Notes: generated from the sequence alone by a model not told the origin. A DNA stretch of 64,000 bases from Arcobacteraceae bacterium (GCA_963662945.1 OY759974.1:1952001-2016000); one strand, 5' to 3'; shown: positions 15,456 through 64,000, counted from the first letter of the stretch. A program made the numbers and translations.

Positions 15456-16841
15456 TTAATCTTCTTGTAGTTTGATAGTAAAAGTTGAACCTTCATTTTC
15501 GACACTTTGAATGTCTAATTTAAATTTATGGAATTTAACAATATTTGATACCAAAGATAATCCTACACCTAAAGAGTTATTCCAAGTGTTATTTGATACA
15601 CGATAAAATTTATTTGTAATTTTTTGGATATCTTTTTGTTTTATACCTATTCCATTATCTTTAACACTTATCTCTTTTTCTGTAATAACGACAAAAACAT
15701 CATCTTGAGAATATTTTAAACCATTTTCTATTAAATTTTCAATAGCTATACGTATCATAGTTTCATCTGCATCAATTTTAATATCATCAGCTTCCAAATA
15801 TATCTCTCTTGATGGATAGGAGATTTTTAAATCATCGATTATAGCCTTTGTTACTTTTACTAAATCTACTTTTGTAAAATTTTTTACCTGTTTACCATCT
15901 TCTAATTTAAGAGTTAAGCGAAGCCTATCAATCATAGTTGTTAACTTATCTGAGTTAGATGATATTTTTTTAAGAAATTTTTCTCGTATTGTTGGATTAA
16001 TATCTTCATCTTCAAGAAGCGTTTGAGTATATCCACTAATTACTGCAATAGGATTTTTAAATTCATGGGAAATTGCAGAGATGATATCATCTTTTTGTCT
16101 ATTTGAAAGTTTTAATTTTGCAGTATACTTAGATTTTTGTTTCTCTTTTTTCATCAATGTTTTAGAAACTTCACTTAAAACTTGCGTTATTTTATGAAAC
16201 TCATAAGAATAGTTTGATTCTATCTTTGTATCTTTGTTTTGTTTTGCAAGATTATTTAAAAATTCCAAAATTTCTGTAGTCTCATATTCTACTTTTTTAC
16301 TAATATATCGCGCAACCCAAAAAGCAATAGCAATAAAAAAAAGAAATAAAATTCCAATTTTTATTGAAAGATAAAAAAACTCTTGATTGATTTGTTCAAT
16401 ATCTCTAGCCATTCTAATATAATAATCTTCACCATGAAGTGTAAATTTTTTTGAAACATATAAAAGTTTTTTGTTGAGTGTGTCAGATTTTCGAATAATT
16501 GAACCATATTCTTGATATTTTGAATTGATAACTTCAGCTCTATCTGAATGATTTTCCATTAATGTTTTATCTTCATCACTCTCTCCAATAACTACACCAT
16601 TTTTATTTATAATAGTAACTCTTAGGGCAATTGAGTGTTTGATATCTGCAACTATTTGATCAACATCGTTAAAGTCTTTAATACCAAGTGAAAGTATATT
16701 TATATTATGAAGAAGGTCAATCTTGGTTTGTTCTATATAAATATTTTTTATCCATATATAAACTACTATTCCTAAAATTAAAAAGATTGTTCCAAAAAGT
16801 ATTATAAATTTTCTTAGGAATATATCATGGAGTCTAAGCAA
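15456..16841 (-). CDS. PhoR-like sensor histidine kinase
   Basis: ISHEFKNP H-box, ENHSDRAEV periplasmic motif, last gene of pstB-phoU-RR-HK. TTG start at 16841 chosen for its RBS. Confidence 0.8.
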   Translation of the reverse strand: MLRLHDIFLRKFIILFGTIFLILGIVVYIWIKNIYIEQTKIDLLHNINILSLGIKDFNDVDQIVADIKHSIALRVTIINKNGVVIGESDEDKTLMENHSDRAEVINSKYQEYGSIIRKSDTLNKKLLYVSKKFTLHGEDYYIRMARDIEQINQEFFYLSIKIGILFLFFIAIAFWVARYISKKVEYETTEILEFLNNLAKQNKDTKIESNYSYEFHKITQVLSEVSKTLMKKEKQKSKYTAKLKLSNRQKDDIISAISHEFKNPIAVISGYTQTLLEDEDINPTIREKFLKKISSNSDKLTTMIDRLRLTLKLEDGKQVKNFTKVDLVKVTKAIIDDLKISYPSREIYLEADDIKIDADETMIRIAIENLIENGLKYSQDDVFVVITEKEISVKDNGIGIKQKDIQKITNKFYRVSNNTWNNSLGVGLSLVSNIVKFHKFKLDIQSVENEGSTFTIKLQED

Positions 16842-17505
16842 AAATGTATCCTTCACCTCGTACAGATTTTATATATTCTTTTTCCCCTGTTGGGTCAATT
16901 TTTTCTTTTAGTCGTTTAATTGCAACATTTACAGTTTTTGATTTTACATCTGTAAAATCTTCCCATACATTTTGAAGAAGTACCTCTCGACTTAATAAAA
17001 CATCTTTATTTTTAAAAAATTCTAACAATAAGTCATGTTCAAGATGTGTAAGATTTATCTCTTTATCTGCAATAAAAAATTTTTTTTGACTTGCTTTATA
17101 AACAATATCTTTGATTTTTTCTATTTCAACATCTTTTGTAGATCTTTTAATAACAGCATTTACTCTAGCTTTGAGAACTTCTAGATTAAAAGGTTTTGTA
17201 ATATAATCATCAGCACCTCTACTAAAGCCTTCAAGGATATCTTCCTCTCTATCTTTAGCAGTTAAATAAATTACAGGATGATTATATCCTTTTTCTCTAA
17301 TGCTTTTTATGAATAAACTTCCTTCAATATTTGGAAGGTTTCTGTCCATAATTATAAGACTAATATCTTCTTCTTCTAATAATTGTTCAACAAGTTTTGT
17401 ATCTAAGCAAGATATAACATCATGACCATCTTTTGTCAATGTATACTCTATTAAGTCTAAGATATCTTGTTCATCTTCAACAACTAAAATAGTACTATCT
17501 TGCAT
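16834..17505 (-). CDS. PhoB-like OmpR-family response regulator
   Basis: REC domain plus winged helix (TVNVAIKRLKEKID, KSVRGEGY); next to phoU and pstB. Confidence 0.85.
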   Translation of the reverse strand: MQDSTILVVEDEQDILDLIEYTLTKDGHDVISCLDTKLVEQLLEEEDISLIIMDRNLPNIEGSLFIKSIREKGYNHPVIYLTAKDREEDILEGFSRGADDYITKPFNLEVLKARVNAVIKRSTKDVEIEKIKDIVYKASQKKFFIADKEINLTHLEHDLLLEFFKNKDVLLSREVLLQNVWEDFTDVKSKTVNVAIKRLKEKIDPTGEKEYIKSVRGEGYIFA

Positions 17506-17542
17506 TAATAATCCTTTTTTATATAATTATAGCAAGTTAATA

Positions 17543-18205
17543 TTATACTTGGTGTATCTCACCACCATTGTTTGCAAATAATAATAAGCTAGCAATACTA
17601 ATAGCTCTATCTGCCACTTTTTCACTTTTTCTAAGTGAAGAAAGCATTTGGTGATATCGTGAAAAGTTATCTGCTTTATCTGCTTGTTTGATTAATGTAT
17701 TTTCAATCATTTCATATAAATCATCAGTTTTATTTTCAGCGATTAATACTTTATTAAAATGTTCTTGAATCTCATCTACACAATCAATATCAAACATTTT
17801 AACAGCAAACTCCAAAGCTTCAACTGTAGATTTTTGCATTGGTATTGCATATTCATTAATAGTTTTTATATCAACTTTTTTACAAACTTCTTGAAACCCT
17901 TTTATAAAACTTCTTGTATTAGAACAAGCTCTCACTAACTCGTTTGTAATTTTTAAATAAGAGACCATCGTTCGTAAATCTTTAGCTTCTGGTGCATGAA
18001 GTGCTAATGTTGTTATAATATCATTATCAATTTCATTTGTTTTATTACTTGTATTTTTTATAGCTAATTTAGCTTCGTTAAATTTATCTAGTTTACAATC
18101 TTTTAATGCATTAATAATAATGATATTTGCTTCAATAAGATTATGTCCAATCTCTTTAATGTTTTTTTTAATTTCATCAAGTTTTTCTTTATAATTTACT
18201 AACAT
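17543..18205 (-). CDS. phoU: Phosphate signalling protein PhoU
   Basis: ALHAPEAKDLR, ENKTDDLY, EKVADRA repeats; start set at the RBS-preceded ATG 18205. Confidence 0.9.
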   Translation of the reverse strand: MLVNYKEKLDEIKKNIKEIGHNLIEANIIIINALKDCKLDKFNEAKLAIKNTSNKTNEIDNDIITTLALHAPEAKDLRTMVSYLKITNELVRACSNTRSFIKGFQEVCKKVDIKTINEYAIPMQKSTVEALEFAVKMFDIDCVDEIQEHFNKVLIAENKTDDLYEMIENTLIKQADKADNFSRYHQMLSSLRKSEKVADRAISIASLLLFANNGGEIHQV

Positions 18206-18215
18206 ATTTTTCCTT

Positions 18216-18983
18216 TTATCCAAATCTTCCAGTGATATAGTCTTCTGTCTTTTTCTCTTTTGGGTTTATAAATATTTTTTCTGTTTCATCATATTCTATT
18301 AAATCACCTAAATGGAAAAATGCTGTCATATCAGCTACCCTAGCTGCTTGTTGCATATTATGAGTAACTGTTACAATCGTATAGTCTTTTTTTAGTTCTA
18401 ACATAAGTGCTTCAATTTTTTCTGTACTAATTGGATCTAGTGCTGAAGTTGGTTCATCCATCAAAATAATATCTGGTTGTACTGCAATAGTTCTAGCTAT
18501 ACAAAGTCGTTGTTGTTGTCCACCACTTAGACCTGTCCCTGGTTCTTTTAAGATATCTTTTACCTCTTCCCAAATACCAGCACCTCTGAGTGATTTTTCA
18601 ACAAGTTCATCACACTCCTTACCTTTTTTGACAAGACCATGTTTTAAAGGTGCATAAGCAACATTTTCATAAATAGACTTTGGAAATGGATTTGGTTGTT
18701 GAAATACCATACCAACTCTTTTTCGTACACTTACTTCATCAACATCTTTATCATATATATTTTTTTCATCAATTATAACTTGACCATCAACTCTTGCAGA
18801 ACTAACTAAGTCATTCATTCTATTTAAACATCTTAAAAATGTTGATTTCCCACACCCAGAAGGTCCTATAAGTGCGGTGATTTGGTTTTCATATATTTCA
18901 ATATTTAGACTATGAAGAGCATGTTTCTCTCCATACCAAAGGTTTAAATCTTTTACATCAATTTTTGTTTTATTTTTTCCCAT
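18216..18983 (-). CDS. pstB: Phosphate ABC transporter ATPase
   Basis: [38 protein letters not shown]. Confidence 0.97.
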
Positions 18984-19013: not shown

Positions 19014-19046
19014 ATTGTACAAATTATTAATTACAATATGGTTACA
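19014..19046 (-). promoter_or_regulatory. Pho-box promoter of pstB-phoU-phoB-phoR
   Basis: TGTAAC-CATAT-TGTAAT, 10 nt, TACAAT. Confidence 0.8.
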
Positions 19047-19201: not shown

Positions 19202-19218
19202 GTTACAAAATAGTTACA
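19202..19218 (-). promoter_or_regulatory. Inverted Pho box just upstream of pit, putative repression site
   Basis: TGTAAC-TATTT-TGTAAC on the antisense strand, downstream of TACAAT -10 candidates and 14 nt before the ATG. Confidence 0.65.
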
Positions 19219-19232: not shown

Positions 19233-20870
19233 ATGAATATGGAAATACATACAGTAAAGAAAATGGAAAAAGAGGCAATGAAAAGCAGTAGTTTTGATTT
19301 TATCAGACTAGGCTTTGCTCTTTTTTTTATGGTTGTTGTATTAAGTTATAGTTTTATTAATACAGGCGGTATTCCAAACAATGTATTTTTAGCAATAGCA
19401 GCACTTTTTGGTGCATATATGGCTATGAATATTGGTGCAAATGATGTTGCAAACAATGTAGGACCAGCTGTAGGTTCAAAAGCTTTAACAATGGGTGGTG
19501 CAATTGTTATTGCTGCTATTTTTGAAGCAAGTGGTGCATTAATTGCAGGTGGAGATGTTGTAAATACAATTAAAAAAGGTATTGTAGATATTTCTGCTTT
19601 TGGAAGTCATACTGATTCTTTTATCTGGGCTATGATGGCTGCACTTTTAGCAGCAGCTATTTGGTTAAATTTTGCAACTTATTTTAAAGCACCTGTTTCA
19701 ACTACACACTCAATAGTAGGTGGAGTTATGGGAGCTGGTATTGCAGCTGCAGGATTTAGTATTGTTGCTTGGGGTACAATGGGAAAAATTGTATTGTCTT
19801 GGATTATTTCACCTGTGTTAGGTGGAATTATTGCTGCATTGTTTCTTTTTGCTATTAAAAAGACTATGGTATATAAAGAAGATAAAATAAGTGCTGCTGT
19901 AACTTGGGTTCCAATATATGTAGCTATTATGTCTTGGGCTTTTGTAACATATATTACATTGAAAGGTTTAAAAAAAATATGGCCTACAATTGTAGATATT
20001 CTGATCTTTTTACCTGATAGTAAACAACCAACATTTTTAGTGGCTGCAACACTTGGGCTTGTAGTTGCAGTAGTTGTTTTTATCATTGTAAAGTCATCTG
20101 TAAATAAAAAGTCTTCAAGAATTAAAAACACAAGAGTTGGTGTTAATAGACTTTTTACAGTACCTCTAATTTTTGCTGCTGCACTTCTTAGTTTTGCACA
20201 TGGTGCAAATGATGTTGCAAATGCAATTGGACCATTAGCTGCAATTAATGATGCTGTTATGAGTGGTGGTATTTCTGCAAAAGCAGGTATACCATTATGG
20301 GTTATGGCTGTTGGTGCTATTGGTATTGCATTAGGACTTGCCTTGTATGGACCAAAACTTATAAGAACAGTTGGAAGTGAAATTACGGAGTTAGATCAAA
20401 TACGAGCATTTAGTGTTGCTATGGCTGCTGCTATTACTGTTATTATTGCTTCTCAGTTAGGATTGCCTGTATCTTCAACACATATTGCGATTGGTGGTAT
20501 TTTTGGAGTAGGTTTTTTAAGAGAGTATTTAACACAAGCAGAAAAATTTGATATAGTTGCAAAAGAGAAAGAGATAGTAGATGATGAGAAAAAGTTTTTA
20601 AAAGCTTTAAGTAGTGAACTCAAAACTTTAGAAGGTAAAAAAGATAAGAAAAAAGATGATTATGAAAGAATAGTTGTTTTATATAAAATGATAGATGAAG
20701 AAGAAGAAAAACTTAAAGAGGCAAAAAGACAGCTAAAAGATGCCGAAAAAATACAATATGTAAAAAGAGATGCAGTTAAAAAAATAGTTGCAGCTTGGAT
20801 TATTACAGTACCAGCAGCAGCTGTTCTTTCGGCAATGTTATATTTTATGATTAGAGGAATTGTTCTTTAA
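19233..20870 (+). CDS. pit: PiT-family inorganic phosphate transporter
   Basis: Two GANDVAN signatures, PVSTTH and PVSSTH, charged C-terminal insert. Confidence 0.95.
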   Translation: MNMEIHTVKKMEKEAMKSSSFDFIRLGFALFFMVVVLSYSFINTGGIPNNVFLAIAALFGAYMAMNIGANDVANNVGPAVGSKALTMGGAIVIAAIFEASGALIAGGDVVNTIKKGIVDISAFGSHTDSFIWAMMAALLAAAIWLNFATYFKAPVSTTHSIVGGVMGAGIAAAGFSIVAWGTMGKIVLSWIISPVLGGIIAALFLFAIKKTMVYKEDKISAAVTWVPIYVAIMSWAFVTYITLKGLKKIWPTIVDILIFLPDSKQPTFLVAATLGLVVAVVVFIIVKSSVNKKSSRIKNTRVGVNRLFTVPLIFAAALLSFAHGANDVANAIGPLAAINDAVMSGGISAKAGIPLWVMAVGAIGIALGLALYGPKLIRTVGSEITELDQIRAFSVAMAAAITVIIASQLGLPVSSTHIAIGGIFGVGFLREYLTQAEKFDIVAKEKEIVDDEKKFLKALSSELKTLEGKKDKKKDDYERIVVLYKMIDEEEEKLKEAKRQLKDAEKIQYVKRDAVKKIVAAWIITVPAAAVLSAMLYFMIRGIVL

Positions 20871-20888: not shown

Positions 20889-20921
20889 TAAAAAAGGGGT
20901 ACTTTGTGTACCCCTTTTTTT
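20889..20921. terminator. Bidirectional terminator between pit and pstA
   Basis: AAAAAAGGGGTAC-tttgt-GTACCCCTTTTTT. Confidence 0.85.
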
Positions 20922-22101
20922 ATTGCCATTTTACTTCAAATTTTTTTCGTAAATAAACGGCAAGTGCATTGAGTGATATAAGTATTGAGAGTAGTACTAA
21001 AATACCAGCAGCTGTTCTTTCAATATATGCTTTCTCTGGCATACCAGCCCAAGTAAATATTTGTGCTGGCATAACAGTTGCAGCATCCATAATAGAAGAT
21101 GGACTATCAGGAATAAATGCAATCATACCTACAATAATCAAAGGTGCAGTTTCACCCATAGCTTGTGCAAGACCAATAATAGAACCAGTCATTACTCCTG
21201 GAAATGCTAATGGTAAAACATGGTCTCTTACAACTTGTATTTTTGTTAATCCTAAACCGTAACCAGCTTGTCTAATACTCGCAGGAACACTTCTTAATGC
21301 AGCTCGTGAACTTACAATTATAATTGGTAACGTCATAAGTGCAAGTGTAAGACCACCAACTAAAGGAGAACTTCTTGGTAGACCAAACATATTGATAAAA
21401 ATAGATAAACCTAAAAGACCAAAAAGAATTGAAGGAATAGCCGCAAGATTGTTAATATTAATCTCAATTAAACTTGACCATCTACTATCTGGATTTGCAA
21501 ATTCCTCAAGATAAACAGCAGTCGCAACACCGATAGGAAAAGCAACAGCCATAGTAACTATCAGTGTAAATATTGAACCAATAATTGCAGATGCAAGTCC
21601 TGAATTTTCAGCTATTTTGCTATCTCCTTGAGTGAAAAATAGGGTATTAAATCTTTTTTCAACTCTATCATTGTCAATTAAGCCTTTTAAAGTTTTTAAG
21701 TCTTTGTTTGAAAGTTTATAATATTGTTGTTTCATATACATATCAACTTGGTCATCAGCTAAAATCCAAAGAAGTTGTTTTGTCCCCATAAGTGATGGGT
21801 CTTTTTTTGCATTCATTGGTATATCTCTGATTGCAGAACGACTTACTAGGTTAAGATATTTTCGTTCAATTGCTTTTCTGTAACTTTGAATACTTGCTTC
21901 ATTGTATGTTACTTCAACTTGAATATATGTTTGCATAAAAGCACTCTTACCTTTTGCAACCATATCACTTAAAAATATTGCTAAAAAGATTAATGATAAA
22001 ACAAGCGCACCTAAAGAGAGTCCTTTAAATACTTTTGCTTTTCTGTGTCTTTTTGCTAATGTTGGATCGTAGAATACATTATTATTGTTTGTGTTTTTCA
22101 T
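20920..22101 (-). CDS. pstA: Phosphate ABC transporter permease PstA (long N-terminal form)
   Basis: YLEEFA, NINNLAAIPSI, AMGETAPL. Confidence 0.95.
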   Translation of the reverse strand: MKNTNNNNVFYDPTLAKRHRKAKVFKGLSLGALVLSLIFLAIFLSDMVAKGKSAFMQTYIQVEVTYNEASIQSYRKAIERKYLNLVSRSAIRDIPMNAKKDPSLMGTKQLLWILADDQVDMYMKQQYYKLSNKDLKTLKGLIDNDRVEKRFNTLFFTQGDSKIAENSGLASAIIGSIFTLIVTMAVAFPIGVATAVYLEEFANPDSRWSSLIEININNLAAIPSILFGLLGLSIFINMFGLPRSSPLVGGLTLALMTLPIIIVSSRAALRSVPASIRQAGYGLGLTKIQVVRDHVLPLAFPGVMTGSIIGLAQAMGETAPLIIVGMIAFIPDSPSSIMDAATVMPAQIFTWAGMPEKAYIERTAAGILVLLSILISLNALAVYLRKKFEVKWQ

Positions 22102-23033
22102 TATAAATTACTCATTTTATATTTTTCTTTAAATTTTTTAATCATCATAACCGATACTATATTCAGTACAAGTGTTACTACAAATAAAACAAGCCCAAGA
22201 GCAAAAGCACTTAATGTATCAGGAGAGTTAAATTCGAAATCTCCTGTAAGTGCGGTAACAATTTGTACAGTAACTGTTGTCATATCTTCTAATGGATTGA
22301 TTGAAAATTTATTTGCATTCATACCAGCTGCCATAACAACAATCATCGTTTCCCCTAAAGCTTTAGAGATAGCTAAAAGTGTTGCTGAGATGATACCTGG
22401 AAGTGCTGATGGTAAAACAATATCTTTGATTGTCTCAGATTTTGTCATTCCAAGTGCAAGGCTTCCTTTTCTTAAACTATCAGGAACCGCATTAATAACA
22501 TCATCACTTAAACTTGAAATTACAGGAATAATCATAATCCCCATAACAACACCAGCAGCTAATGCACTATTAAAAGAAGCTTCTAAACCAAAGAAGTCAG
22601 CTATGTTAACAATAGCAGGTGCAACAGTAATAGCTGCAAAGAAACCATAGACAACAGTAGGTATTCCTGCAAGTATTTCTAAAAGTGGCTTCACCGTTGT
22701 TCTTACATTGTCAGTTGCATATTCACTCATATAAATTGCACTAAATACCCCAATAGGTAATGCAACAGCTATAGCAATAAACGTAATGATAAAAGTTCCT
22801 GCAAAAATAGCACCAGCACCAAATTCACTGTGTGCAGTACCAGGAGACCAATGTGAACCTGTGATAAAATATGTAAAGCTTCTTAAGTTAAAAAACTCTA
22901 TAGCTTCAAAGAGAATTGAAAATAAGATACCAAAAGTAGTGAGTATTGATATAATAGCAGCTGCTATAAGAAAATATTCAATAATAGTTTCTTTTAGTAG
23001 TGTTTTTTTATTTTTTGGTTGAAATGATTCCAA
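22101..23033 (-). CDS. pstC: Phosphate ABC transporter permease PstC
   Basis: KPLLEILAGIPTVVYGFF, ALGETMIV; TTG start. Confidence 0.95.
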   Translation of the reverse strand: MESFQPKNKKTLLKETIIEYFLIAAAIISILTTFGILFSILFEAIEFFNLRSFTYFITGSHWSPGTAHSEFGAGAIFAGTFIITFIAIAVALPIGVFSAIYMSEYATDNVRTTVKPLLEILAGIPTVVYGFFAAITVAPAIVNIADFFGLEASFNSALAAGVVMGIMIIPVISSLSDDVINAVPDSLRKGSLALGMTKSETIKDIVLPSALPGIISATLLAISKALGETMIVVMAAGMNANKFSINPLEDMTTVTVQIVTALTGDFEFNSPDTLSAFALGLVLFVVTLVLNIVSVMMIKKFKEKYKMSNL

Positions 23034-23061
23034 AATAATCCTTTAACGTTTTGTTAAAGTT

Positions 23062-23094
23062 ATTTTAGAATATTTTAGTTACATATTGATTACA
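23062..23094 (-). promoter_or_regulatory. Pho-box promoter of pstCA
   Basis: TGTAAT-CAATA-TGTAAC, 10 nt, TAAAAT; first half-site contains the psiE stop codon. Confidence 0.8.
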
Positions 23095-23527
23095 TTGTTG
23101 TATTTGTTTTGTTTTCCTCATCAATCCATCTATCAGGTGAGGTAAAGACAGCTAACCATCTTAATATAAAAAGAAATAGTAAAACACCGCTGAAAATAAG
23201 AATATGAAAATTTGTACTATTTGAGAGTAACATCTCAAAACTAGTGATATCTTCTTTGTTTATTTTAATAACATTGACAATAAATTCTCTTAATGTCAAA
23301 ATTATAAAAGCATCTATCAAAATTCTTATTTTAACACGTTTTTCTCGTAAAAAACTCATTACAGCTCTAACAATTTCAAGCATAATAATAAAGTATAGTA
23401 AATAAATTATAACTAGTACAACGCTATCTGTAACAACAGCTACAATAAATAATACTGTCGCAACAATAAGTTCAATATAAAATTTACTGTAAAAAAACTC
23501 TTTTAATTTTCGCATACTGCTATACAT
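23090..23527 (-). CDS. Phosphate-starvation-inducible PsiE-family membrane protein
   Basis: Four TM helices, LEIVRAV and ILIDAFIILTLRE motifs, pst context; start uncertain. Confidence 0.75.
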   Translation of the reverse strand: MYSSMRKLKEFFYSKFYIELIVATVLFIVAVVTDSVVLVIIYLLYFIIMLEIVRAVMSFLREKRVKIRILIDAFIILTLREFIVNVIKINKEDITSFEMLLSNSTNFHILIFSGVLLFLFILRWLAVFTSPDRWIDEENKTNTTM

Positions 23528-23531
23528 CAAA

Positions 23532-23930
23532 CTAGTCCCTTTTTCTAAAATAGTGGTATTTTTGTTCTTCAAGTAACTCTTCTACATATTTTTTAACTGC
23601 TTTATTTGCTTTTTGCCAGATACCAGAAGGTAATCGTACTTCGAGTTTTTTCTTTTCTCTAAATTTAATAATTTTCTTAGGTGTTAAAATTTTATCAATT
23701 GGCGTAAAGTCATATTCTGTTAAATCAATATCATTTTTATAAAATAGTGTTTGTTCTTTAAATTTTCCCCAACCTGGAATTCCTTCTTCTGTATATGGTA
23801 CTTCATAATCATTTTCAAATGTTACCATTAATTTATAATGCCCATCATCAAATACTGTTGTGACTATTCCAAGTCCAAATACTAAACCAAATACTTTATC
23901 ACCCTTTTTTGCTTTTTCAAAATAACCCAT
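23532..23930 (-). CDS. Hypothetical protein (possible SH3-like N-terminus)
   Basis: 132-aa ORF with AGGA RBS; GDKVFGLVFGLGIV beta-rich start. Confidence 0.75.
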   Translation of the reverse strand: MGYFEKAKKGDKVFGLVFGLGIVTTVFDDGHYKLMVTFENDYEVPYTEEGIPGWGKFKEQTLFYKNDIDLTEYDFTPIDKILTPKKIIKFREKKKLEVRLPSGIWQKANKAVKKYVEELLEEQKYHYFRKRD

Positions 23931-23957
23931 TTAAAATCCTTATGTTACATTTTTAGA

Positions 23958-23990
23958 ATTATACCGTACTATTATTACATATTGATTTCA
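23958..23990 (-). promoter_or_regulatory. Pho-box promoter of hypothetical-psiE
   Basis: TGAAAT-CAATA-TGTAAT, 10 nt, TATAAT. Confidence 0.75.
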
Positions 23991-26450: not shown

Positions 26451-26473
26451 ATATAATTCCTTTTTTTGAGCGA

Positions 26474-26506
26474 ATAATATAGTTATATTGTTACAAATTG
26501 ATTACA
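26474..26506 (-). promoter_or_regulatory. Pho-box promoter of the chemoreceptor
   Basis: TGTAAT-CAATT-TGTAAC, 10 nt, TATTAT. Confidence 0.8.
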
Positions 26507-26594: not shown

Positions 26595-26828
26595 CTATGC
26601 TGAAATTTTAGATTTTGTACTATAGTGTCTTTCTACTTCTTTAGCAGCACTTTTGAACGCTTTTTTTGTAGACTTACCTACACCTCTAAAAATTCTATCT
26701 TCATTGATAAATTCAACGATATCAAGATTTTTCTTTACTTTTGTGTCAACAACTCTAAAAATGTGAAACTCTTTTTTGAGTTTTTTAATCTTTGGGAACT
26801 CTTGACTTTTTAGTACTTTTGTTTCCAT
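26595..26828 (-). CDS. Small basic hypothetical protein
   Basis: METKVLKS..., AAGGA RBS before ATG 26828. Confidence 0.65.
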   Translation of the reverse strand: METKVLKSQEFPKIKKLKKEFHIFRVVDTKVKKNLDIVEFINEDRIFRGVGKSTKKAFKSAAKEVERHYSTKSKISA

Positions 26829-26919
26829 TTTTATATCCTTTAGTAATAATATATTACTAATATACATAATTTAAGCTTAAAGTTTGATTAGTTATAAGAA
26901 AAACGAATATGTAATTATA

Positions 26920-51347: not shown

Positions 51348-51372
51348 AATTCCCCCTTTTTTGAGACATTGT

Positions 51373-51405
51373 ATAATAATCAAGTTTAGTAACATATCAA
51401 TTACG
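51373..51405 (-). promoter_or_regulatory. Pho-box promoter of the GH57 glucanotransferase
   Basis: CGTAAT-TGATA-TGTTAC, 10 nt, TATTAT. Confidence 0.6.
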
Positions 51406-51426: not shown

Positions 51427-51459
51427 TGTAATTAAGTAGTAATCAATAATGAGTAATAT
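51427..51459 (+). promoter_or_regulatory. Pho-box promoter of the REC-kinase gene
   Basis: TGTAAT-TAAGT-AGTAAT, 10 nt, TAATAT. Confidence 0.68.
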
Positions 51460-51486
51460 CAAGGAAAAAAATAAGGCAATATAATT

Positions 51487-56675: not shown

Positions 56676-56685
56676 AGTTTAAAGG

Positions 56686-57567
56686 TTATTCTATATATTT
56701 ATAAATATCTTCCATAATGGCATAATTTGTACTATTTGTTTTTTTGTACATTATTGTTTTACCAAGTCTTGGTACAAAGTTTTTAGGCATACTTATAAGT
56801 GCATCTTGTAAAGAGTTTTTGAGTTCTTGTGATAAACTTTTTTGAACTATTATTGGAGATTTAGGTATATCATCTGATTCCCAAATAATTATATTTGTTT
56901 TTGTGGAAATTTTTTTATCTTCTATAAGTTGATGATAAAACATCTCAGCAGTAGCTGCCATCGGAATAATATTATTTGCAACAACTAATTCAGCAGCATC
57001 ATGTGTACCTACAAAAGTGATTTGTTTAAAATAATCTTCAATTTTAATATTTGCTTTTTTCATATAATAGTTTGGTACAGCGTATCCTGAAGTAGAACTT
57101 TCATCTGTAAAAGCTAATATCCATTTTTGTTTATATTTTTCAAGTTTTGATTTTAAAATATTCATGCCAGCTTCACCTTTTAAAGGTGTTGAGATATTGA
57201 GTGTTTTTGCTACCTCTGGTGTAACAACAAAGAGTGATTTATAAGTTGCAAAACCATCTTTAGTTACCCCAGTTACTATTGGTTCAACTTCAGCTACTTT
57301 TTTTGTTAGGACATAAGAAAATGGTCCTACAAATGCAAAATCAAGTTCATTTTTTGAAAATTTATTGATAATTTCGCCATAACTATTTTCGTAATTAATT
57401 TTTATACATCTATGAATTTTTTTTTCAAGGTATTTTTTCCAATCTTGATAATAACTTTCTATTTCTGAGATATTAACATAAGGTATAACACCATATCTTA
57501 GACACTTAGTATCTGCAAGAATATTAGTTATTAAAAATACAGAGAGTAAAAAAACTACTTTTGTCAC
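56686..57567 (-). CDS. PhnD-like phosphate/phosphite/phosphonate-binding protein
   Basis: Signal peptide, GPFSYV, SSTSGY, GTHDA. Confidence 0.85.
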   Translation of the reverse strand: MTKVVFLLSVFLITNILADTKCLRYGVIPYVNISEIESYYQDWKKYLEKKIHRCIKINYENSYGEIINKFSKNELDFAFVGPFSYVLTKKVAEVEPIVTGVTKDGFATYKSLFVVTPEVAKTLNISTPLKGEAGMNILKSKLEKYKQKWILAFTDESSTSGYAVPNYYMKKANIKIEDYFKQITFVGTHDAAELVVANNIIPMAATAEMFYHQLIEDKKISTKTNIIIWESDDIPKSPIIVQKSLSQELKNSLQDALISMPKNFVPRLGKTIMYKKTNSTNYAIMEDIYKYIE

Positions 57568-57575
57568 ATAAATAC

Positions 57576-58574
57576 CTACATTTTAAAATGTTTGAGTGCA
57601 TACATATACGAGTTTCTCTCATAAGCTGAGGGATTATCTGTATGGTGTAATGAAATACTACCAATCATCTGTTTGATTGATTCATATTCATGTTCCAGCA
57701 TCCATTTTTCCATCTCAAAAAGCATATTGTATAAATACTTCTCTCCTCTTTCTAAAAGAATAGAAGCTATTGCAACACTATTAGCACCACTCATCATTGC
57801 TTTTAAAACATCTTCACCTGTTTTAATTCCTGTATTTACACATAAATCAGCATCTAATTTATTAAATAAAATAGCACACCATCGTAAAGATTCACTTTTA
57901 TCTTTAGAGTTTGTAAGGTGTGCTCTTTGAGTTGCACTCAATGTTTCTAAATCAATACTTACATTAATAGGATTATCAAAAAGTGTTAAGCCATTTGCAC
58001 CTGCTTCTACAAATTTTTTTGCCATATTTGCAGGATTTGTAAAGTAGGAGTTCATTTTTACATTTAAAGGAATAGAAATATGTTGTCGTAGATTTTTAAT
58101 AGTATTGATATACATATTTTCTATCTCCGCACCACTCATATCAATTGAAGTTGGGATATAAGTGATATTAAGTTCTAAAGCATCTGCACCAGCTTCTTCT
58201 AATTTAGAACCATATTTAATCCAACCAGCTTCACTTACACCATTTAAACTAGCAATTACAGGAACATTCGTAGATTTTTTTACTTCACTTACAAATTCTA
58301 AATAATGTTCACTATCTAAATTATCAAATTGCATATCTGTAGGAAAATACTCTAAAGCTTCCGCATAACTATCATTTTCTTTATATAAAAAGTGGTCTAA
58401 CACTTTTTGTTCATGATTGATTTGTTCTTCAAAAAGTGAATGAAGAACAACAGCAGCAATACCGTGGTCTTCTAGTCGTTTAATACCACCTAAACTATTT
58501 GTAATAGGTGATGCTGAAGCTATAATTGGATTTTTAAGGTTGAGTCCTAAATAAGTTGTTGTTAAATCAATCAT
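57576..58574 (-). CDS. Dihydroorotate dehydrogenase-like flavoprotein
   Basis: DLTTTYLGLNLKNPIIASASP, SLFEEQI, GADALELN, AYERNSY; coupled to PFOR. Confidence 0.88.
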   Translation of the reverse strand: MIDLTTTYLGLNLKNPIIASASPITNSLGGIKRLEDHGIAAVVLHSLFEEQINHEQKVLDHFLYKENDSYAEALEYFPTDMQFDNLDSEHYLEFVSEVKKSTNVPVIASLNGVSEAGWIKYGSKLEEAGADALELNITYIPTSIDMSGAEIENMYINTIKNLRQHISIPLNVKMNSYFTNPANMAKKFVEAGANGLTLFDNPINVSIDLETLSATQRAHLTNSKDKSESLRWCAILFNKLDADLCVNTGIKTGEDVLKAMMSGANSVAIASILLERGEKYLYNMLFEMEKWMLEHEYESIKQMIGSISLHHTDNPSAYERNSYMYALKHFKM

Positions 58575-61500
58575 TTTGTGTTCCTTTATTTTCAAATTGA
58601 TGTTGTAAATTTGTATATCTTTCATAAAGCGTTTTAGCTGCATGAGTTGCAGTATCAAGATATGTTATTGCAGAGTTTTTATCTATCTTTTCAACCATCT
58701 TAAATCGTGTTTCATTATACATATAATCTTTGACACTGATTTGAGGACCTTTATAGTCTAAAGTAAGTGGATTTTCTCCAATATCTAGAAGTTCAGGATT
58801 AAATCTAAAAATAGGCCACAATCCACACTCAACAGCTTTTTTCTGTTGCTCCATTCCATATCGTAAATCATATCCGTGCGCAACACAGTGAGAATAAGCT
58901 ATGATAATAGATGGACCATCATATTGTTCCGCTTCCATAAAAGCTTTTACAGTTGCTTTATCATTTGCACCCATTGAGACTTTTGCCACATAAACATTTT
59001 GATAATTAATAGCCATAGAAGCTAAATCTTTTGGTAAACCAGCTTTTCCACCAGCTGCAAATTTAGCAACAGCACCTGTCATAGTTGCCTTACTTTGTTG
59101 TCCACCTGTATTTGAATATACTTGTGTATCTAGCACTAAAATATTGACATTTTTCCCACTTGCTAAAACATGATCTAAGCCGCCATATCCAATATCATAG
59201 GCCCAACCATCTCCTCCCATAATCCATACAGATTTTTTCACTAAATACTCAACAATATTTTCTAATTCTTTTACTGTATCACTAGCCGGTATATTTTGAA
59301 GAGCATTTTGAAGTTTTAATACTCTTGCTCTTTGAAGGTTGATTTGTTCTTCTGTTTTTTGTTCGGCATTTAAAATATCATCAACTAAGACCATATCAAG
59401 TTGATCTTTTAATTGTTCTAGTAAGGTTCTGGCTTTTAAAGTATGACTATCAACAGAAAGCCTAAATCCCAAACCAAACTCTGCATTGTCTTCAAATAAA
59501 GAGTTTGACCAAGCAGGTCCTCTCCCTTTTGCATCTTTTTTCCAAGGAGTTGTTGGCAAGTTTCCACCATAAATAGAACTACATCCTGTAGCATTTGCTA
59601 TAAGCATTCTATCTCCAAAAAGTTGTGAGGCTAATTTTACATATGGTGTTTCTCCACAGCCTGGACAAGCACCACTAAACTCAAACAATGGCTCCAAGAA
59701 TTGAGAGTCTTTTACATTTGTATGGTCTAGCTGTTCCCTTGGTACATTTGGTAAAGAAAGGAAATAATCCCATTGTTTTATCCCTTCTTCTCTTAAAGGA
59801 AGTTGTGGTTTCATATTGATAGCTTTGAGATTTGTTTGGGATTTGTTTTTTGCAGGACAAACCTCTACACACAACTCACAACCAGTACAATCTTCAACGG
59901 CAACTGAGATATTAAATACATCATTTTCTCCAAAGTTTTTCCCTTTTGCTTTTTTGTAATGAAAACTATCAGGTGCCTTTTCTACTAATGTTTTATCAAA
60001 TACTTTTGAACGAATAACAGAATGTGGACAGACTAAAACACATTTGTTACATTGGATACAAGTATCAGCATCCCACACAGGAACTTCTTGTGCTATATTT
60101 CTTTTTTCATATTGAGTTGTACCTGTTGGCCAAGTCCCATCTGCAGGTATATCAGAAACAGGAATCTCATCACCTTTATATTCTGTGATTTTTTGGATAA
60201 CATTAGCAACAAAAGGAGACAAATCACCTTTTAGGACACTTTTAAGTGCAATGTCACTTGAAATTTGTGATGGTACTTGTATTTCAAAAAGATTTTCTAA
60301 ACTACTATCAACAGCAGCATAATTCATCTTTACAATAGAATCACCTTTTTTCCCATAAGTTTTATAAATAGAGTCTTTGATTTTTTCTATCGCTTCTTCT
60401 TTTTGAAGTATTCCACTTATTGCAAAAAAACAAGTCTGCATCACTGTATTTATTCTTGAACCCATATTACTTTTTTTAGCTACACTATAAGCATCTATTG
60501 CATAAAATTTTAGTTTTTTATCTACAATTTGTTTTTGTGTAGCTTTTGGTAATCTATCCCAAATCTCCTCTTTTGAATATGGAGTATTAAGTAAAAATGT
60601 AGCTCCATCTTTAGCAATCTCTAATAGATCCAACTTTTCTAAAAAGACCGCTTGATGTACACCAACGAAATCTGCTTTTTGAATAAGATAACTTGATTTT
60701 ATCTCTTTATTTCCAAATCGTAAATGAGAAGTTGTCATAGAACCAGATTTTTTTGAATCGTATACAAAATATCCTTGAGCATAATTATCTGTTTCCATCC
60801 CTATAATTTTGATAGAATTTTTATTTGCACCAACAGTTCCATCACTTCCAAGTCCATAAAATACAGCTTCATATTGATCGCTATTTTTCATAATAAGGTT
60901 TTTATCATATTCTAAACTTGTATGGGTAACATCATCATTGATCCCTATTGTAAAATGATTTTTAGGAAGTGGTTTGCTTAATTCATCAAAAATAGTTTTT
61001 ATCATACTTGGGGTAAATTCTTTTGAAGAGATACCATATCGTCCACCTATGATTTTTGGCATAGAAAATGGTAAATTATTTTGTGATTCAAAAAGAGCTG
61101 TTACAACATCGTGGTAAAGTGGTTCCCCTATACTCCCTGATTCTTTTGTTCTATCAAGAACTGCTATTGCTTGTACTGTTTTTGGTAAGGTACCTATAAA
61201 ACTTTCAATACAAAATGGAAGTGCTAGTCTTACTTTTATCATACCAACTTTTTCTCCATCTTTTGTAAGATGTTCGATAGTTTCATCAACAGCACTTGCA
61301 CCTGAGCCCATTACAACTATAAGTTTTGTAGCATCAGTTGCTCCTACATAGTCAAAAAGTTTGTAACTCCTTCCTGTTAATGTGGCAAATTTATCCATTT
61401 GTTTTTGAAGAATTTTTGGAGTTTCATTATAATATTTATTGACAGTTTCTCTCCCTTGAAAATAAACATCAGGGTTCTGACTAGTACCTCTTAAAATTGG

Positions 61501-62136
61501 TTTATCAGGTGTCATACCTCTTTGTCTATGAGCATTTACAAGTTGGGTATCAATCATTTTCTTTAAAATATCTTCATTTAAAACTTCAATTTTATTTACT
61601 TCGTGAGAGGTTCTAAATCCATCAAAAAAATGTAAAAAAGGGATTCTAGATTCTAAAGATGCTGCTTGAGATATAAGAGCAAAGTCGTGGGCTTCTTGAA
61701 CACTGTTTGATGCCATTAAAGCAAATCCCGTTTGTCGTACACCCATAACATCTTGATGATCTCCAAAGATTGATAAGCCTTGTGCTGCTAAACTTCTTGC
61801 TGCTACATGAAAAACTGTAGGTGTTAATTCTCCTGCAATTTTATACATATTTGGAATCATAAGGAGTAAACCTTGGGAAGCTGTAAATGTTGTAGTTAAA
61901 CTTCCAGCTTGCAAAGCACCATGAACAGCTCCACTGGCTCCCCCTTCACTTTGCATTTCATATACTTCAGGGATTGTTCCAAAAATATTTTTTTCATGTT
62001 TTGCACTATACAGGTCGCTTAGTTCTCCCATTGGAGATGAAGGAGTGATAGGATAGATTGCTATAACTTCATTTATTTTATGGGCTACTAAAGCTACAGC
62101 CTCATTACCATCGATTGTTTTAAACTCTTTATTCAT
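58567..62136 (-). CDS. nifJ: Pyruvate:ferredoxin (flavodoxin) oxidoreductase, single-chain
   Basis: IYPITPSS, GLGSDGTVG, two ferredoxin CxxCxxCxxxCP motifs, GACPGCGE, GGDGWAYDIG. Confidence 0.96.
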   Translation of the reverse strand: MNKEFKTIDGNEAVALVAHKINEVIAIYPITPSSPMGELSDLYSAKHEKNIFGTIPEVYEMQSEGGASGAVHGALQAGSLTTTFTASQGLLLMIPNMYKIAGELTPTVFHVAARSLAAQGLSIFGDHQDVMGVRQTGFALMASNSVQEAHDFALISQAASLESRIPFLHFFDGFRTSHEVNKIEVLNEDILKKMIDTQLVNAHRQRGMTPDKPILRGTSQNPDVYFQGRETVNKYYNETPKILQKQMDKFATLTGRSYKLFDYVGATDATKLIVVMGSGASAVDETIEHLTKDGEKVGMIKVRLALPFCIESFIGTLPKTVQAIAVLDRTKESGSIGEPLYHDVVTALFESQNNLPFSMPKIIGGRYGISSKEFTPSMIKTIFDELSKPLPKNHFTIGINDDVTHTSLEYDKNLIMKNSDQYEAVFYGLGSDGTVGANKNSIKIIGMETDNYAQGYFVYDSKKSGSMTTSHLRFGNKEIKSSYLIQKADFVGVHQAVFLEKLDLLEIAKDGATFLLNTPYSKEEIWDRLPKATQKQIVDKKLKFYAIDAYSVAKKSNMGSRINTVMQTCFFAISGILQKEEAIEKIKDSIYKTYGKKGDSIVKMNYAAVDSSLENLFEIQVPSQISSDIALKSVLKGDLSPFVANVIQKITEYKGDEIPVSDIPADGTWPTGTTQYEKRNIAQEVPVWDADTCIQCNKCVLVCPHSVIRSKVFDKTLVEKAPDSFHYKKAKGKNFGENDVFNISVAVEDCTGCELCVEVCPAKNKSQTNLKAINMKPQLPLREEGIKQWDYFLSLPNVPREQLDHTNVKDSQFLEPLFEFSGACPGCGETPYVKLASQLFGDRMLIANATGCSSIYGGNLPTTPWKKDAKGRGPAWSNSLFEDNAEFGLGFRLSVDSHTLKARTLLEQLKDQLDMVLVDDILNAEQKTEEQINLQRARVLKLQNALQNIPASDTVKELENIVEYLVKKSVWIMGGDGWAYDIGYGGLDHVLASGKNVNILVLDTQVYSNTGGQQSKATMTGAVAKFAAGGKAGLPKDLASMAINYQNVYVAKVSMGANDKATVKAFMEAEQYDGPSIIIAYSHCVAHGYDLRYGMEQQKKAVECGLWPIFRFNPELLDIGENPLTLDYKGPQISVKDYMYNETRFKMVEKIDKNSAITYLDTATHAAKTLYERYTNLQHQFENKGTQND

Positions 62137-62164
62137 AGAAAATCCTCGTAATGAAATGGAAGGT

Positions 62165-62197
62165 ATTATAAAAGAGTAGTATTACAGTTTAATTACA
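62165..62197 (-). promoter_or_regulatory. Pho-box promoter of the PFOR operon
   Basis: TGTAAT-TAAAC-TGTAAT, 10 nt, TATAAT. Confidence 0.8.
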
Positions 62198-62325: not shown

Positions 62326-63144
62326 TTAATAGTTTTGTAGTAGTTTTGTCCCTTGTAGAGAACCTTCATTGAGTGTAGATAAAGTTATAGAAAGTTTTTC
62401 TCTCTTAAAAGCACTTTGTAAAAATTGTTTTTCTAAAAAGCTTTTAATTTTGGGATGGTTTCCAACGCTACCACCTAATACTAAATGGTCAAAGTCAAAT
62501 AGATTTAAAGCAGTATGAAAAGCGTGTGATAATCCATTATAAAAATTTTCAATGATTATATTTGCATTGTCAGTATTGAGTGATTCTAGTAAATCTAATC
62601 TACTAAATTCTTTATCTATTTTAAAATAAGAGCACCAATGTTTAAGACCATTTCCACTTACATACAGTTCTAAACAATCGTCTCTTCCACATCCACAAGT
62701 AAATGGAGATTTTTTAAAAGGGATATGTCCTATCTCTCCAGCAGTGTTATTTGCACCTGTTACTAATCTGTTATTATCTATAAAAGCACTTCCAAACCCA
62801 GTTCCTATATAAAAAACTGCTAAAGATTTTACTTGCAAAGCATGATGTTCTGCAATTGCTGCACAATTTAAATCATTGTCAATAGCTACTGAAATTTTGT
62901 ATTTTTCCTCAATGTATTTTTTTACATCAAAGTTTGCTGTATGCGCATTTGGAGAGGAAATTATTTTTCCATTTCGTACCTGCCCAGCAAAAGATATACC
63001 TATAAAAGATATATTTGGATATTTTTTTATTATCTCATCAAGGAATTTTTTTAAATCTATTGTATCACTTGATAGTGTTGTTACGGAAGATTCATCAAAT
63101 TGATATCGAAAACTTGTTCCACCAAAATCAATATACAGATTCAT
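62326..63144 (-). CDS. ROK-family sugar kinase (glucokinase-like)
   Basis: IDFGGT, DNDLNCAA, GTGFG, GEIGH, CGCGRDDCLE; start at ATG 63144. Confidence 0.9.
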   Translation of the reverse strand: MNLYIDFGGTSFRYQFDESSVTTLSSDTIDLKKFLDEIIKKYPNISFIGISFAGQVRNGKIISSPNAHTANFDVKKYIEEKYKISVAIDNDLNCAAIAEHHALQVKSLAVFYIGTGFGSAFIDNNRLVTGANNTAGEIGHIPFKKSPFTCGCGRDDCLELYVSGNGLKHWCSYFKIDKEFSRLDLLESLNTDNANIIIENFYNGLSHAFHTALNLFDFDHLVLGGSVGNHPKIKSFLEKQFLQSAFKREKLSITLSTLNEGSLQGTKLLQNY

Positions 63145-63145
63145 T

Positions 63146-64000
63146 TTATGACTTATATAACTCAATATATTCTTTAGTTGATTGTTTCCAAGAGTGGTCA
63201 ACTTTCATATTGTGTTTTGAAATTTGTTCAAATTTTTTATGATTTCCATATAATGATAACGCTTTTGCAATTGCATGCATAAACCAAAAAATATTGTGTT
63301 CTTCATATGTGATACCAATACCCATATACTCTTTTAAGTGATTATAATCAACATCAGTAAAATCTGTAACAGTATCTCTAAGTCCTCCTGTTTTAGCAAC
63401 AATTGGTAAAGTCCCATATTTCATACAAATCATCTGATTTAATCCACAAGGTTCAAATAAAGATGGCATCACTAAAAAGTCTGCCCCTGCATACATTTTT
63501 CTTGCAAAACTTTCGTTGTATCCAACTTTGATATAAACATTTGGATAACTTACAGAGATATTATTAAAAACTGTATTATAGTGTTCTTCCCCACTTCCAA
63601 GAACGATAAAGTTTGCTTCAAAATCTTTAAAAAAGTTAAAGTTTTCAATTAAAAGGTCAATTCCTTTTTGATGAGTGAATCGTCCTATAAAAACAAAAAG
63701 TGGTTTATCACATTCTACAAAGCCAACTTCTTTTAAGAGGTTTTGTTTGTTGATATCCTTGTCTTCATAAGTTTTTACCCCAAAGTTTTTATAAAGCATA
63801 TCATCTTTTTTTGGATCAAAAACATCATAACTTATACCATTTAAAATACCTTTGAGTTTATAACTGTTTGCTCGTAAAACATCATCTAAATCACTACCAA
63901 AAAGTGGTGTTTGAATTTCATTTGCATATGTTGGACTTACCGTTGTTATATGATCACTATAATAAATTCCTGCTTTTAAGAAATTTACTTGGTCATGATA
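63146..64000 (-). CDS. glgA: Glycogen synthase (GT5), 5'-truncated by the window edge
   Basis: Frame open to the window end: NFLKAGI, TTVSPTYANEI, GILNGI, GRFTHQKG, PSLFEPCGLNQ. Confidence 0.93.
   Translation of the reverse strand, partial: YHDQVNFLKAGIYYSDHITTVSPTYANEIQTPLFGSDLDDVLRANSYKLKGILNGISYDVFDPKKDDMLYKNFGVKTYEDKDINKQNLLKEVGFVECDKPLFVFIGRFTHQKGIDLLIENFNFFKDFEANFIVLGSGEEHYNTVFNNISVSYPNVYIKVGYNESFARKMYAGADFLVMPSLFEPCGLNQMICMKYGTLPIVAKTGGLRDTVTDFTDVDYNHLKEYMGIGITYEEHNIFWFMHAIAKALSLYGNHKKFEQISKHNMKVDHSWKQSTKEYIELYKS

Follow-up and report, generated by a model that had tools for sequence, protein, structure and literature searches.

The region described here is a stretch of 64,000 nucleotides from an Arcobacteraceae bacterium (bases 1952001-2016000 of OY759974.1, assembly GCA_963662945.1), which is called the window in the following and to which all coordinates refer unless genome positions are indicated. 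The source genome is a single contig of 2,497,315 bp with about 28% G+C and a rated completeness of 99.99%. From position 15456 to its right end the window carries genes for phosphate uptake and signalling, chemotaxis, c-di-GMP turnover, ornithine lipid synthesis and carbon metabolism, and nearly every operon among them starts behind a promoter with two TGTAAY repeats in the place of a -35 element. An earlier note on this DNA had interpreted these promoters as a clustered Pho regulon of about 48 kb. The clustering could be confirmed, but the block does not end at position 64000. It runs about 21 kb further to pstS, and in its full extent from phoR (window 15456) to pstS it covers about 70 kb with 18 box promoters. 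Not contained in the earlier note were an extra box at 19202-19218, four half-sites at 32873-32911, and, beyond the right end of the window, pstS and two more promoter regions. With operon extents derived from strand and spacing alone, about 50 of the approximately 56 open reading frames from phoR to pstS fall into box-headed runs. Outside such runs are pit, two small reading frames at 40523-41132, and the genes for a 96 amino acid protein, a GNAT protein and an ORF6N protein. The G+C content is uniform across the window (0.24-0.33). As to hallmarks of horizontal transfer, no tRNA gene was found in the window or in the 30 kb to its right; a search for integrases was not made.

A common promoter architecture

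PhoB dimers bind direct repeats of 11 bp which stand in for the -35 element, at a distance of about 10 bp from the downstream -10 hexamer. The same geometry was found in all 15 of the sites described earlier, each of which has the two repeats of TGTAAY-N5-WGTAAY in an 11-bp period, then exactly 10 nucleotides and a TAnnAT hexamer, on the sense strand of the downstream gene. The motif as written is a valid consensus but is exact in only six of the 15 sites (pstB, pstC, the chemoreceptor gene MCP, olsF, REC-HK, and PFOR); seven have one mismatch and two, those of the phoH operon (32873) and of GH57 (51389), have two. The consensus derived from the sites themselves is TGTAAY-CA-N3-TGTAAY, N10, TAnAAT, with the highest information content at both repeats.

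For counting, a composite was defined as a box with at most one mismatch to TGTAAY-N5-WGTAAY, N10, and TAnnAT. The strict box occurs eight times in the window versus 0.24 expected, and the box with up to one mismatch 20 times versus 6.99 expected; none of 100 shuffles reached either number. In the whole genome there are 20 strict boxes, eight of them within the window, and 19 composites, 13 of which lie between 15456 and 64000. Ten second-order Markov genomes contained 0-5 composites each. The composite is thus not equally frequent elsewhere in the genome or in randomised sequence. When spacers of 4-17 nucleotides were scanned, spacer 10 alone was enriched, with 19 composites versus 1-6 at each other spacer; in the span from 15456 onwards there were 13 matches at spacer 10, one at spacer 12, and none at the others. 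The first 15 kb of the window, said in the earlier note to be free of such sites, indeed contain no composite, and the best score of a gene start there is 9.7. Scores of the gene starts from 10 to 92 kb are bimodal, 18 starts reaching at least 16 and all others at most 9.7. In a scan of the genome with a position weight matrix (PWM), 18 of the 24 best matches (score at least 18.4) lie between phoR and the point 21 kb right of the window.

Because the pattern had come from the island itself, an independent matrix was built for which only pstS promoters from 16 other genomes were used, with 15 distinct sites among them, and this genome was rescanned. Twelve of the 20 top matches fell into the block, which makes up 2.8% of the genome (binomial tail 2.5e-14), and 19 matches scored at least 18 in the genome versus none in the reversed genome.

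These data bear on the explanation that the pattern arose by chance, or is how promoters look in general when a genome is AT-rich, without any dedicated regulator. At 28% G+C, TAnnAT hexamers and T/A-rich repeats are common, and a generic sigma-70 promoter scan, uninformative in itself, detected no more promoter-like sites than in shuffled sequence (102 versus 110). The 19 composites against 0-5 in shuffled or Markov genomes, the enrichment at a single spacer, reversed-pattern and reversed-genome controls close to zero, the lack of the box before housekeeping-type gapA (0 of 13 genomes), and the retention of sites between relatives in which the spacers have diverged all contradict this explanation. 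It is ruled out by the controls, is already refuted, and retains practically no probability.

Phosphate genes behind the boxes

At the left end of the block pstB, phoU, a gene for a regulator of the OmpR/PhoB family (16834-17505), and a gene for a PhoR-like histidine kinase (15456-16856) form one co-directional run on the minus strand (15456-18983) behind the box at 19030. PstB exceeds its NCBIfam cut-off (TIGR00972, 404 bits versus 343); PhoU reaches 63.9 bits (TIGR02135, cut-off 130) and the kinase 141 bits (TIGR02966, cut-off 334). The promoter (19014-19046, minus strand) is made up of the box, 10 nucleotides and TACAAT, has a PWM score of 29.6, and is kept in the related genomes G013, G037, G009, and G006. 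All other gene starts within the run have box scores of -4 or less. From this context, the box before the run would provide autoregulation of the regulator. The pstC-pstA operon (20920-23094, minus strand; TIGR02138, 282.7 bits, and TIGR00974, 212.5 bits, both over cut-off) has its box at 23078-23094 and its -10 hexamer at 23062-23067 (PWM 29.1).

Between these two runs lies pit (19233-20870, plus strand), encoding a low-affinity phosphate transporter of the PHO4 family (Pfam PHO4, 379.9 bits), which is the sole sizeable gene of the block without a sense-strand box (best score -3.8). Antisense to it, 15 nucleotides upstream of its start codon, the extra strict box at 19202-19218 (minus strand) has no -10 hexamer at 10 nucleotides. 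It sits downstream of TACAAT hexamers at 19172 and 19181 and is kept, with a changed spacer, in all four of the close relatives named above. Possibly PhoB represses pit from this site, or the site has an auxiliary role at the pstB promoter.

The best candidate for PstS, a PBP_like_2 protein encoded 21 kb right of the window, scores 145 bits with TIGR02136 (cut-off 206.6). Its gene starts 31 nucleotides after a composite with zero mismatches, the best-scoring site of the genome. A search with TIGR00975 had returned a weak match at genome position 571096 (32 bits), which was dropped for the TIGR02136 candidate. The motif is thus present before pstS, pstC, and pstB, and also before olsF, the PIN-PhoH gene, and two PPK2 genes. 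Because it precedes the pst genes (pstS, pstCA, and pstB-phoU-phoB-phoR), both PPK2 genes and olsF, the motif is identified, on the identity of these genes, as a Pho box.

The proposal that a normally dispersed regulon has been gathered into one island is mostly correct, but several good sites are found elsewhere in the genome. The two PPK2 genes are adjacent (genome 144463-146559) and follow a strong Pho box at genome 144384; further sites precede pta (19.6), a metallophosphoesterase/GT4 pair (17.7 and 15.0), a gene for a DUF4116 protein, and a reading frame of 103 amino acids. In the pair, a calcineurin-like metallophosphoesterase gene and a GT4 glycosyltransferase gene are divergent (genome 1696008-1698003), each with a moderate box. 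The pairing is reminiscent of the PlcP/Agt genes for remodelling phospholipids into glycolipids, an identity not confirmed with NCBIfam, in which the first had no named match and the second a sub-threshold one.

The carbon module

Beyond the right end of the window gapA and fba diverge from a region with two boxes, one for each direction, the gapA box being at genome 2026098. The minus-strand run headed by gapA comprises pfk, a pyruvate-kinase-like gene, a glgC/PGM fusion, a GH57 gene, a galT-like gene, glgA, and a ROK kinase gene, and re-enters the window at its right end, where glgA and the ROK sugar kinase gene form its tail (62326-64000, minus strand). The run on the other side starts with fba and continues with eno, pyk, and a Tll0287-like gene. 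In the block gapA, pgk, fba, eno, FBPase, and phoH2 are second copies, and only here does the genome encode pfk, PFOR, the glycogen genes, ndh2, and olsF. Housekeeping gapA-pgk, eno, and fba are located outside (genome 1424222-1426424, 2065875-2067122, and 2074113-2075174, respectively), with the pgk paralog at genome 1425246 being 49% identical. Lower glycolysis is thus encoded twice in this organism, and only one of the two enzyme sets is placed behind Pho boxes. A phosphate-sparing bypass glycolysis was considered as rationale of the module and ruled out because the island pfk is of the ATP-dependent type (NF002872, 339 bits, cut-off 253) and the island gapA encodes an ordinary phosphorylating type I enzyme (TIGR01534, 413 bits, cut-off 367).

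Conservation and evolution of the block

The motif, its geometry and enrichment, the clustering, the conservation, and the gene identities are direct observations. Synteny and site conservation, which the earlier note had suggested to check, turned out in its favour, as boxes and clustering recur in several Arcobacteraceae. Genomes of the genus mostly contain 10-31 composites versus 0-6 in the reversed-pattern control, and in 12 other families of the order the numbers are near the control level (0-8). In all 17 genomes with a pstS ortholog of at least 75% identity the box is present 26-33 nucleotides before the start of this gene, including species without the carbon module. All 12 genomes with an island-type gapA of at least 83% identity have the box there as well, in each of the two divergent directions. 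G013 shows full synteny at 70-95% protein identity. G015 is rearranged; at protein identities of 42-87% and with spacers that have changed, it retains boxes before glgP, DUF4912, REC-HK, PFOR, gapA, fba, and small leader genes.

Pattern matches are clustered in G013 (19 of 28 in 73 kb), G006 (19 of 27 in 85 kb), and G037 (16 of 26 in 67 kb), and G015 and G038 have 13 plus 5 matches in two blocks, of totals of 31 and 29. A compact block of about 21 kb from pstS to phoR is found in G036, with seven boxes before pstS, EAL-GGDEF, olsF, MCP, the 132 amino acid gene, pstC, and pstB; an island-type gapA and an AmyA-type GH57 gene of this genome are unboxed and on another contig. In G008, which has no carbon module, pstS is 1 Mb away from pstB and there are 11 matches versus 3 in the control. 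The block thus occurs dispersed (G008), as about 21 kb (G036), as about 70 kb (the present genome, G000, as well as G013 and G037), and as two blocks (G015 and G038), and the series from G008 via G036 to the G000 and G015 clades constitutes a natural experiment in regulon growth through physical accretion of genes and rewiring of promoters.

An origin by insertion between adjacent pstS and pstC genes is unsupported in this form, pstS and pstB being 1 Mb apart in G008. The simplest reading of the comparison is that an older compact Pho block was enlarged in one subclade by taking in the carbon module, with its promoters turning Pho-dependent. A more far-reaching version, to which we give slightly less than even credence, is that in one Arcobacter subclade a complete accessory pathway to make and ferment glycogen was inserted into the older compact pst-pho block, every operon gaining a Pho box. 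The pathway meant comprises glgC/PGM, glgA, the GH57 enzymes, glgP, the only pfk and PFOR of the genome, and the second gapA, pgk, fba, and eno. Glycolysis and carbon storage might then have phosphate starvation, not carbon supply, as their master switch, and in this organism, for which no alkaline phosphatase was found, a shortage of phosphorus might be met by re-routing carbon, not by scavenging.

The regulator and the proposed mechanism

With good though not full confidence, the promoters are taken to be PhoB-type Pho-box promoters controlled by the pho-adjacent regulator. In the proposed mechanism low phosphate would be reported by Pst/PhoU and the PhoR-like kinase would phosphorylate the regulator at 16834-17505. 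The phosphorylated protein would bind as a head-to-tail dimer on the two 11-bp-phased TGTAAY repeats which, occupying the -35 position and ending 10 nucleotides before the -10 hexamer, would recruit sigma-70 RNA polymerase. Activated in this way would be the genes with which phosphate is taken up and its level signalled (pstS, pstCA, and the pstB-phoU run that includes the genes of the regulator and its kinase), those for proteins of chemotaxis and c-di-GMP turnover, the synthesis of phosphorus-free ornithine lipid by olsF, and the carbon module with glycogen synthesis and breakdown, extra glycolytic enzymes, PFOR, and NDH-2. This module would have entered an older, compact pst-pho block and would have been connected to it one box at a time. 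Here we infer which regulator binds, the activation at low phosphate, and the extents of the operons.

That the regulator at 16834-17505 controls the block, as the earlier note had it, is backed by its context in the pstB-phoU run behind a box, but the protein itself stays below the cut-offs for PhoB. PhoB is its best NCBIfam match, it is about 34% identical to verified PhoB, and its recognition helix TVNVAIKRLK is similar to TVDVHIRRLR of verified PhoB. Neither overall similarity nor helix identity was decisive for its identity, and because of this it is assigned by context, not proven, as the functional ortholog of PhoB. A response regulator gene and phoR are found beside phoU and pstB, behind a Pho box, and this linkage with adjoining boxes recurs in G013, G015, and G036 and on the sequences L009 and L010.

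The listed relatives of the regulator gene are mostly distant genes of the OmpR family, and four of the 80 loci listed were used (L009, L010, L035, and L055). Among these the link between regulator and box extends beyond the genus. Among the matches listed the nearest named one is from Arcobacter sp. YIC-310, with 68% protein identity; there a box precedes pstC of a run of pstCAB, phoU, regulator and kinase genes. On L010, a contig of a Sulfuricurvum metagenome-assembled genome with 47% G+C from another family, where the regulator is 49% identical, divergent boxes lie between a PstS-like gene and the phoU, regulator and kinase genes; the motif is therefore older than the genus. The box regions of this contig are at 1075-1156 and 5354-5386, beside the PstS-like gene, the phoU-regulator-kinase genes, and an ABC permease gene.

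Several points weigh against control by a PhoB of the expected kind. The regulator scores 168.4 bits with TIGR02154 (cut-off 296.2), versus 374 and 367 bits for verified PhoB proteins (L035 and L055), and 123.2 bits with NF007546 (equivalog cut-off 471). The genome encodes 29 winged-helix regulators of the OmpR type, among which the candidate has the top score in the comparison with one verified PhoB and the second-best score with the other, the differences being only 4-5 bits, and with five or six of the 28 others being almost as PhoB-like. Its recognition helix is identical to that of PhoB in six of 16 residues, plus conservative changes, and three other regulators reach seven of 16. E. coli PhoB is not among the 27 best solved relatives of the candidate. 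The kinase has a weak periplasmic match to an sCache-like domain (25.2 bits, cut-off 27), and its input may therefore not be phosphate flux alone. The regulon content is atypical in that it has many central-carbon genes, and homologs of PhoA, PhoD, PhoX, and PPK1 were not found in the 99.99%-complete genome. In the comparison, G003 shows no enrichment (4 composites versus 5 in the control), 10 of 28 genus genomes gave no match with the pstS query, and the most distant copies of island-type gapA, in G036 and G003, have no box (0 of 2). The run from pstS to FBPase contains gaps of 119 and 215 nucleotides.

From the regulator data it could be argued that one of the 28 other OmpR-family regulators binds the TGTAAY repeats and that the phoU-adjacent one has another role or none. 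The large number of such regulators, the five or six that resemble PhoB equally well overall, and the several that match its recognition helix equally or better speak for this, as does a second OmpR-type two-component pair which adjoins phoR to the left (13223-15380). On the other side, only the candidate is encoded in a pstB-phoU-regulator-kinase run behind a box, and this linkage recurs in G013, G015, G036, YIC-310, and the Sulfuricurvum contig; the regulator of the second pair has a recognition helix unlike that of PhoB and no box. Another regulator as the binding protein is therefore very improbable. The second pair consists of the OmpR-type regulator at 13223-13918 and a Cache-domain kinase, on the minus strand directly downstream of phoR.

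A further explanation accepts the pho-adjacent regulator as the binding protein and takes its signal to be broader than external phosphate, such as a nutrient imbalance or carbon excess perceived via the periplasmic domain of the kinase, which would make the block a storage or overflow regulon that includes pst. It draws on the boxed operons, more than half of which encode carbon, redox or signalling functions, not phosphorus scavenging, on the lack of an alkaline phosphatase or PPK1 among the genes found in the genome, on the sub-threshold sCache-like segment, and on the site at pta outside the block. Set against these are PhoU and PstB in the same run as regulator and kinase, which is the classical arrangement for phosphate sensing, the best site of the genome at pstS with conservation in all 17 orthologs, and the retention of the box on pst genes by species without the carbon module. 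In addition, glycogen accumulation under phosphate limitation is reported for other bacteria in work cited in PMC5193443. A broader signal is consequently unlikely, though it deserves more weight than a different regulator, and control of the block by the pho-adjacent regulator in response to phosphate is preferred.

Further operons of the block

Next to pstC, the box at 23974-23990 precedes genes for a 132 amino acid protein of no family and for a small membrane protein (23090-23990, minus strand; likely start of the latter 23527; PWM 26.5; box kept in G013, G015, and G036). This unit had been labelled hyp-psiE; it is boxed as stated, but PsiE (PF06146), the only plausible family match of the reading frame at 23090-23527, remains below the Pfam gathering score (E 0.0062, 17.1 bits versus 23.9). 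A chemoreceptor gene for 817 amino acids follows (23997-26506, minus strand; box 26490-26506; MCPsignal, 127 bits; PWM 28.5). The box at 28618-28634 heads a gene for a 558 amino acid protein and a reading frame of 90 amino acids (26595-28634, minus strand; PWM 28.2). For the 558 amino acid protein the label HD had been chosen. The box is present, but Pfam HD matches only below threshold (E 3.4e-4), and the protein is a putative dNTP triphosphohydrolase of the SAMHD1 type, as judged by its similarity to SAMHD1 chains of the PDB (E 1.4e-11, residues 4-68 and 138-353). Its gene (26920-28596, minus strand) lies directly behind a strong Pho box, so dNTP breakdown may join the phosphate response. 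Bacterial relatives are usually discussed as anti-phage enzymes.

The phoH operon (29927-32911, minus strand) starts with four consecutive 11-bp half-sites at 32873-32911, room for two dimers (PWM 23.6 and 22.2), and contains reading frames of 82 and 65 amino acids, a Cj0069-family ATP-grasp gene (NF033816, 263.7 bits), and a PIN-PhoH gene (PhoH2, with PhoH/PIN_4 matches), followed by a terminator-like hairpin at 29891-29864. The two leading reading frames belong to no known family, and the gene for 82 amino acids and the box are kept in G013 and G015. The 96 amino acid, GNAT and ORF6N genes come after the hairpin and are not box-headed. Variable cargo is seen in the GNAT/ORF6N genes (28649-29748, minus strand) and the ATP-grasp gene (31350-32369, minus strand), which have no counterpart in the syntenic G013.

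The box at 37412-37428 is followed by olsF, a PhnD-type binding protein gene, and a PAS histidine kinase gene (32933-37428, minus strand; OlsF NF052615, 830 bits, cut-off 620; PWM 27.7). Next come an EAL-GGDEF gene (37413-39238, minus strand; box 39222-39238; PWM 26.9), with the box also before the orthologs in G013 and G036, and an NDH-2-like oxidoreductase gene (39234-40499, minus strand; box 40483-40499; Pyr_redox_2, 148.7 bits; PWM 25.0), whose true start is downstream of the listed TTG. A DASS/SLC13 anion symporter gene (41179-42761, plus strand; box 41179-41195; TIGR00785, 253.9 bits; PWM 18.8) has the longest leader, 95 nucleotides from the -10 hexamer to the start, and its G013 ortholog is without a box.

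On the plus strand there follow genes for alpha-glucan phosphorylase, the second copy of pgk, and mgtE (42771-47037; box 42771-42787; PWM 27.3) and for a DUF4912 protein and a GH57 branching enzyme (47065-49324; box 47065-47081; PWM 19.7), both boxes being kept in G013 and G015. A GH57 enzyme of the amylase/4-alpha-glucanotransferase type is encoded at 49341-51405 on the minus strand (AmyA-gluTrfs_C, 201.5 bits; GH57, 158.3 bits). Its box at 51389-51405, with two mismatches, scores 16.0 in the PWM, and the orthologous sites in G013 and G037 have one mismatch. The box of a REC-HK hybrid gene (51427-52680, plus strand; box 51427-51443; PWM 23.5) heads in G015 a run of REC-HK, olsF, phoH2, the 558 amino acid HD gene, and DASS. 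Finally, the box at 62181-62197 precedes PFOR (TIGR02176, 1789 bits), a DHODH-like gene, a PhnD-type binding protein gene, a PAS kinase gene, and a REC-GGDEF-EAL gene (52667-62197, minus strand; PWM 26.2); it is kept in G013 and G015, and the operon extent is deduced from co-directionality.

A gene for a periplasmic binding protein of the PhnD type, a family that binds phosphonate or phosphite, with a PAS histidine kinase gene directly after it occurs three times, at 34744-35571 with 32933-34747, at 56686-57567 with 54336-56675, and on L002 at 4523-5362 with 5362-8694. Two of these pairs are inside boxed operons, and none has an adjacent ABC permease or ATPase gene; they look like binding-protein-dependent sensors, not transporters.

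Significance and comparison with known systems

In the literature searched, no paper was found that contains Arcobacter and 'pho box' together, and the present analysis is the first sequence-level definition of a Pho box and regulon that we found for Arcobacteraceae. The idea that hypothetical genes of the block belong to phosphorus starvation is supported in that about ten genes of unknown or unexpected function can be provisionally assigned to the phosphate response, among them those for the 132 amino acid, 82 amino acid and DUF4912 proteins, the SAMHD1-like dNTPase, the chemoreceptor, the c-di-GMP enzymes, and the kinases linked to binding proteins. It is further predicted that glycogen metabolism and the duplicated glycolysis are phosphate-controlled. 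The mechanism is classical PhoB-type activation and thus textbook; what is of value is which genes the block contains and how it evolved, not a new principle.

In E. coli the half-site is CTGTCAT and PhoB sites are found 'throughout the genome', as stated in sections of PMC3465305. TGTAAY is one base apart from this half-site, and the two direct repeats of about 7 bp, their 11-bp phase and the gap of about 10 bp to the -10 hexamer are alike. Shared with the E. coli Pho regulon are also pstS, pstCAB-phoU, and the regulator's own operon as targets, PhoU/PstB beside the two-component genes, and four tandem half-sites at one promoter. Unlike in E. coli, the regulator, at its modest identity to verified PhoB, is below the equivalog cut-off, pstS is apart from pstCAB, and searches for genes of alkaline phosphatase, phn and ugp found none. 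There are 18 contiguous promoters in about 70 kb, and genes for glycogen metabolism, glycolysis, and PFOR belong to the regulon. A link of phosphate limitation with glycogen or phosphorus-free lipids has been reported elsewhere, in portions of PMC5193443 and PMC4415409.

The arrangement and the box described here are classical, in contrast to the system of C. jejuni. To our knowledge, no phosphate two-component system of this phylum other than PhosS/PhosR of C. jejuni has been studied by experiment. The work on it by Wosten and co-workers (2006) is cited in PMC4415409, PMC6250842, and PMC3197622, and the system is described as non-classical. As its box it has a repeat of the GTTTC type, which differs from TGTAAY, and it is not known to be linked to phoU. 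According to parts of PMC6250842 it governs pstS, pstC, and phoX.

Clustering of Pho genes in islands is already known. Phosphate-related islands have reportedly been described for Prochlorococcus by Martiny in 2006. Those of HIMB59 comprise up to 18.5 kb and 19 genes with pst, phoB-phoR, and accessory genes (sections of PMC10734472). The present block likewise has pst genes and phoBR clustered with accessory genes and a content that varies between relatives, and it can thus be counted among the phosphate-related genomic islands. The HIMB59 islands are defined by gene content without mapped Pho boxes, and 'glycolysis' is absent from those sections of their text (PMC10734472). In contrast to them, the block described here, with about 70 kb and about 56 open reading frames, has a mapped box on nearly every operon and contains a central-carbon module, and it stands out by its size, the near absence of gaps, and the wiring of a duplicated glycolysis/glycogen/PFOR module to the phosphate response.

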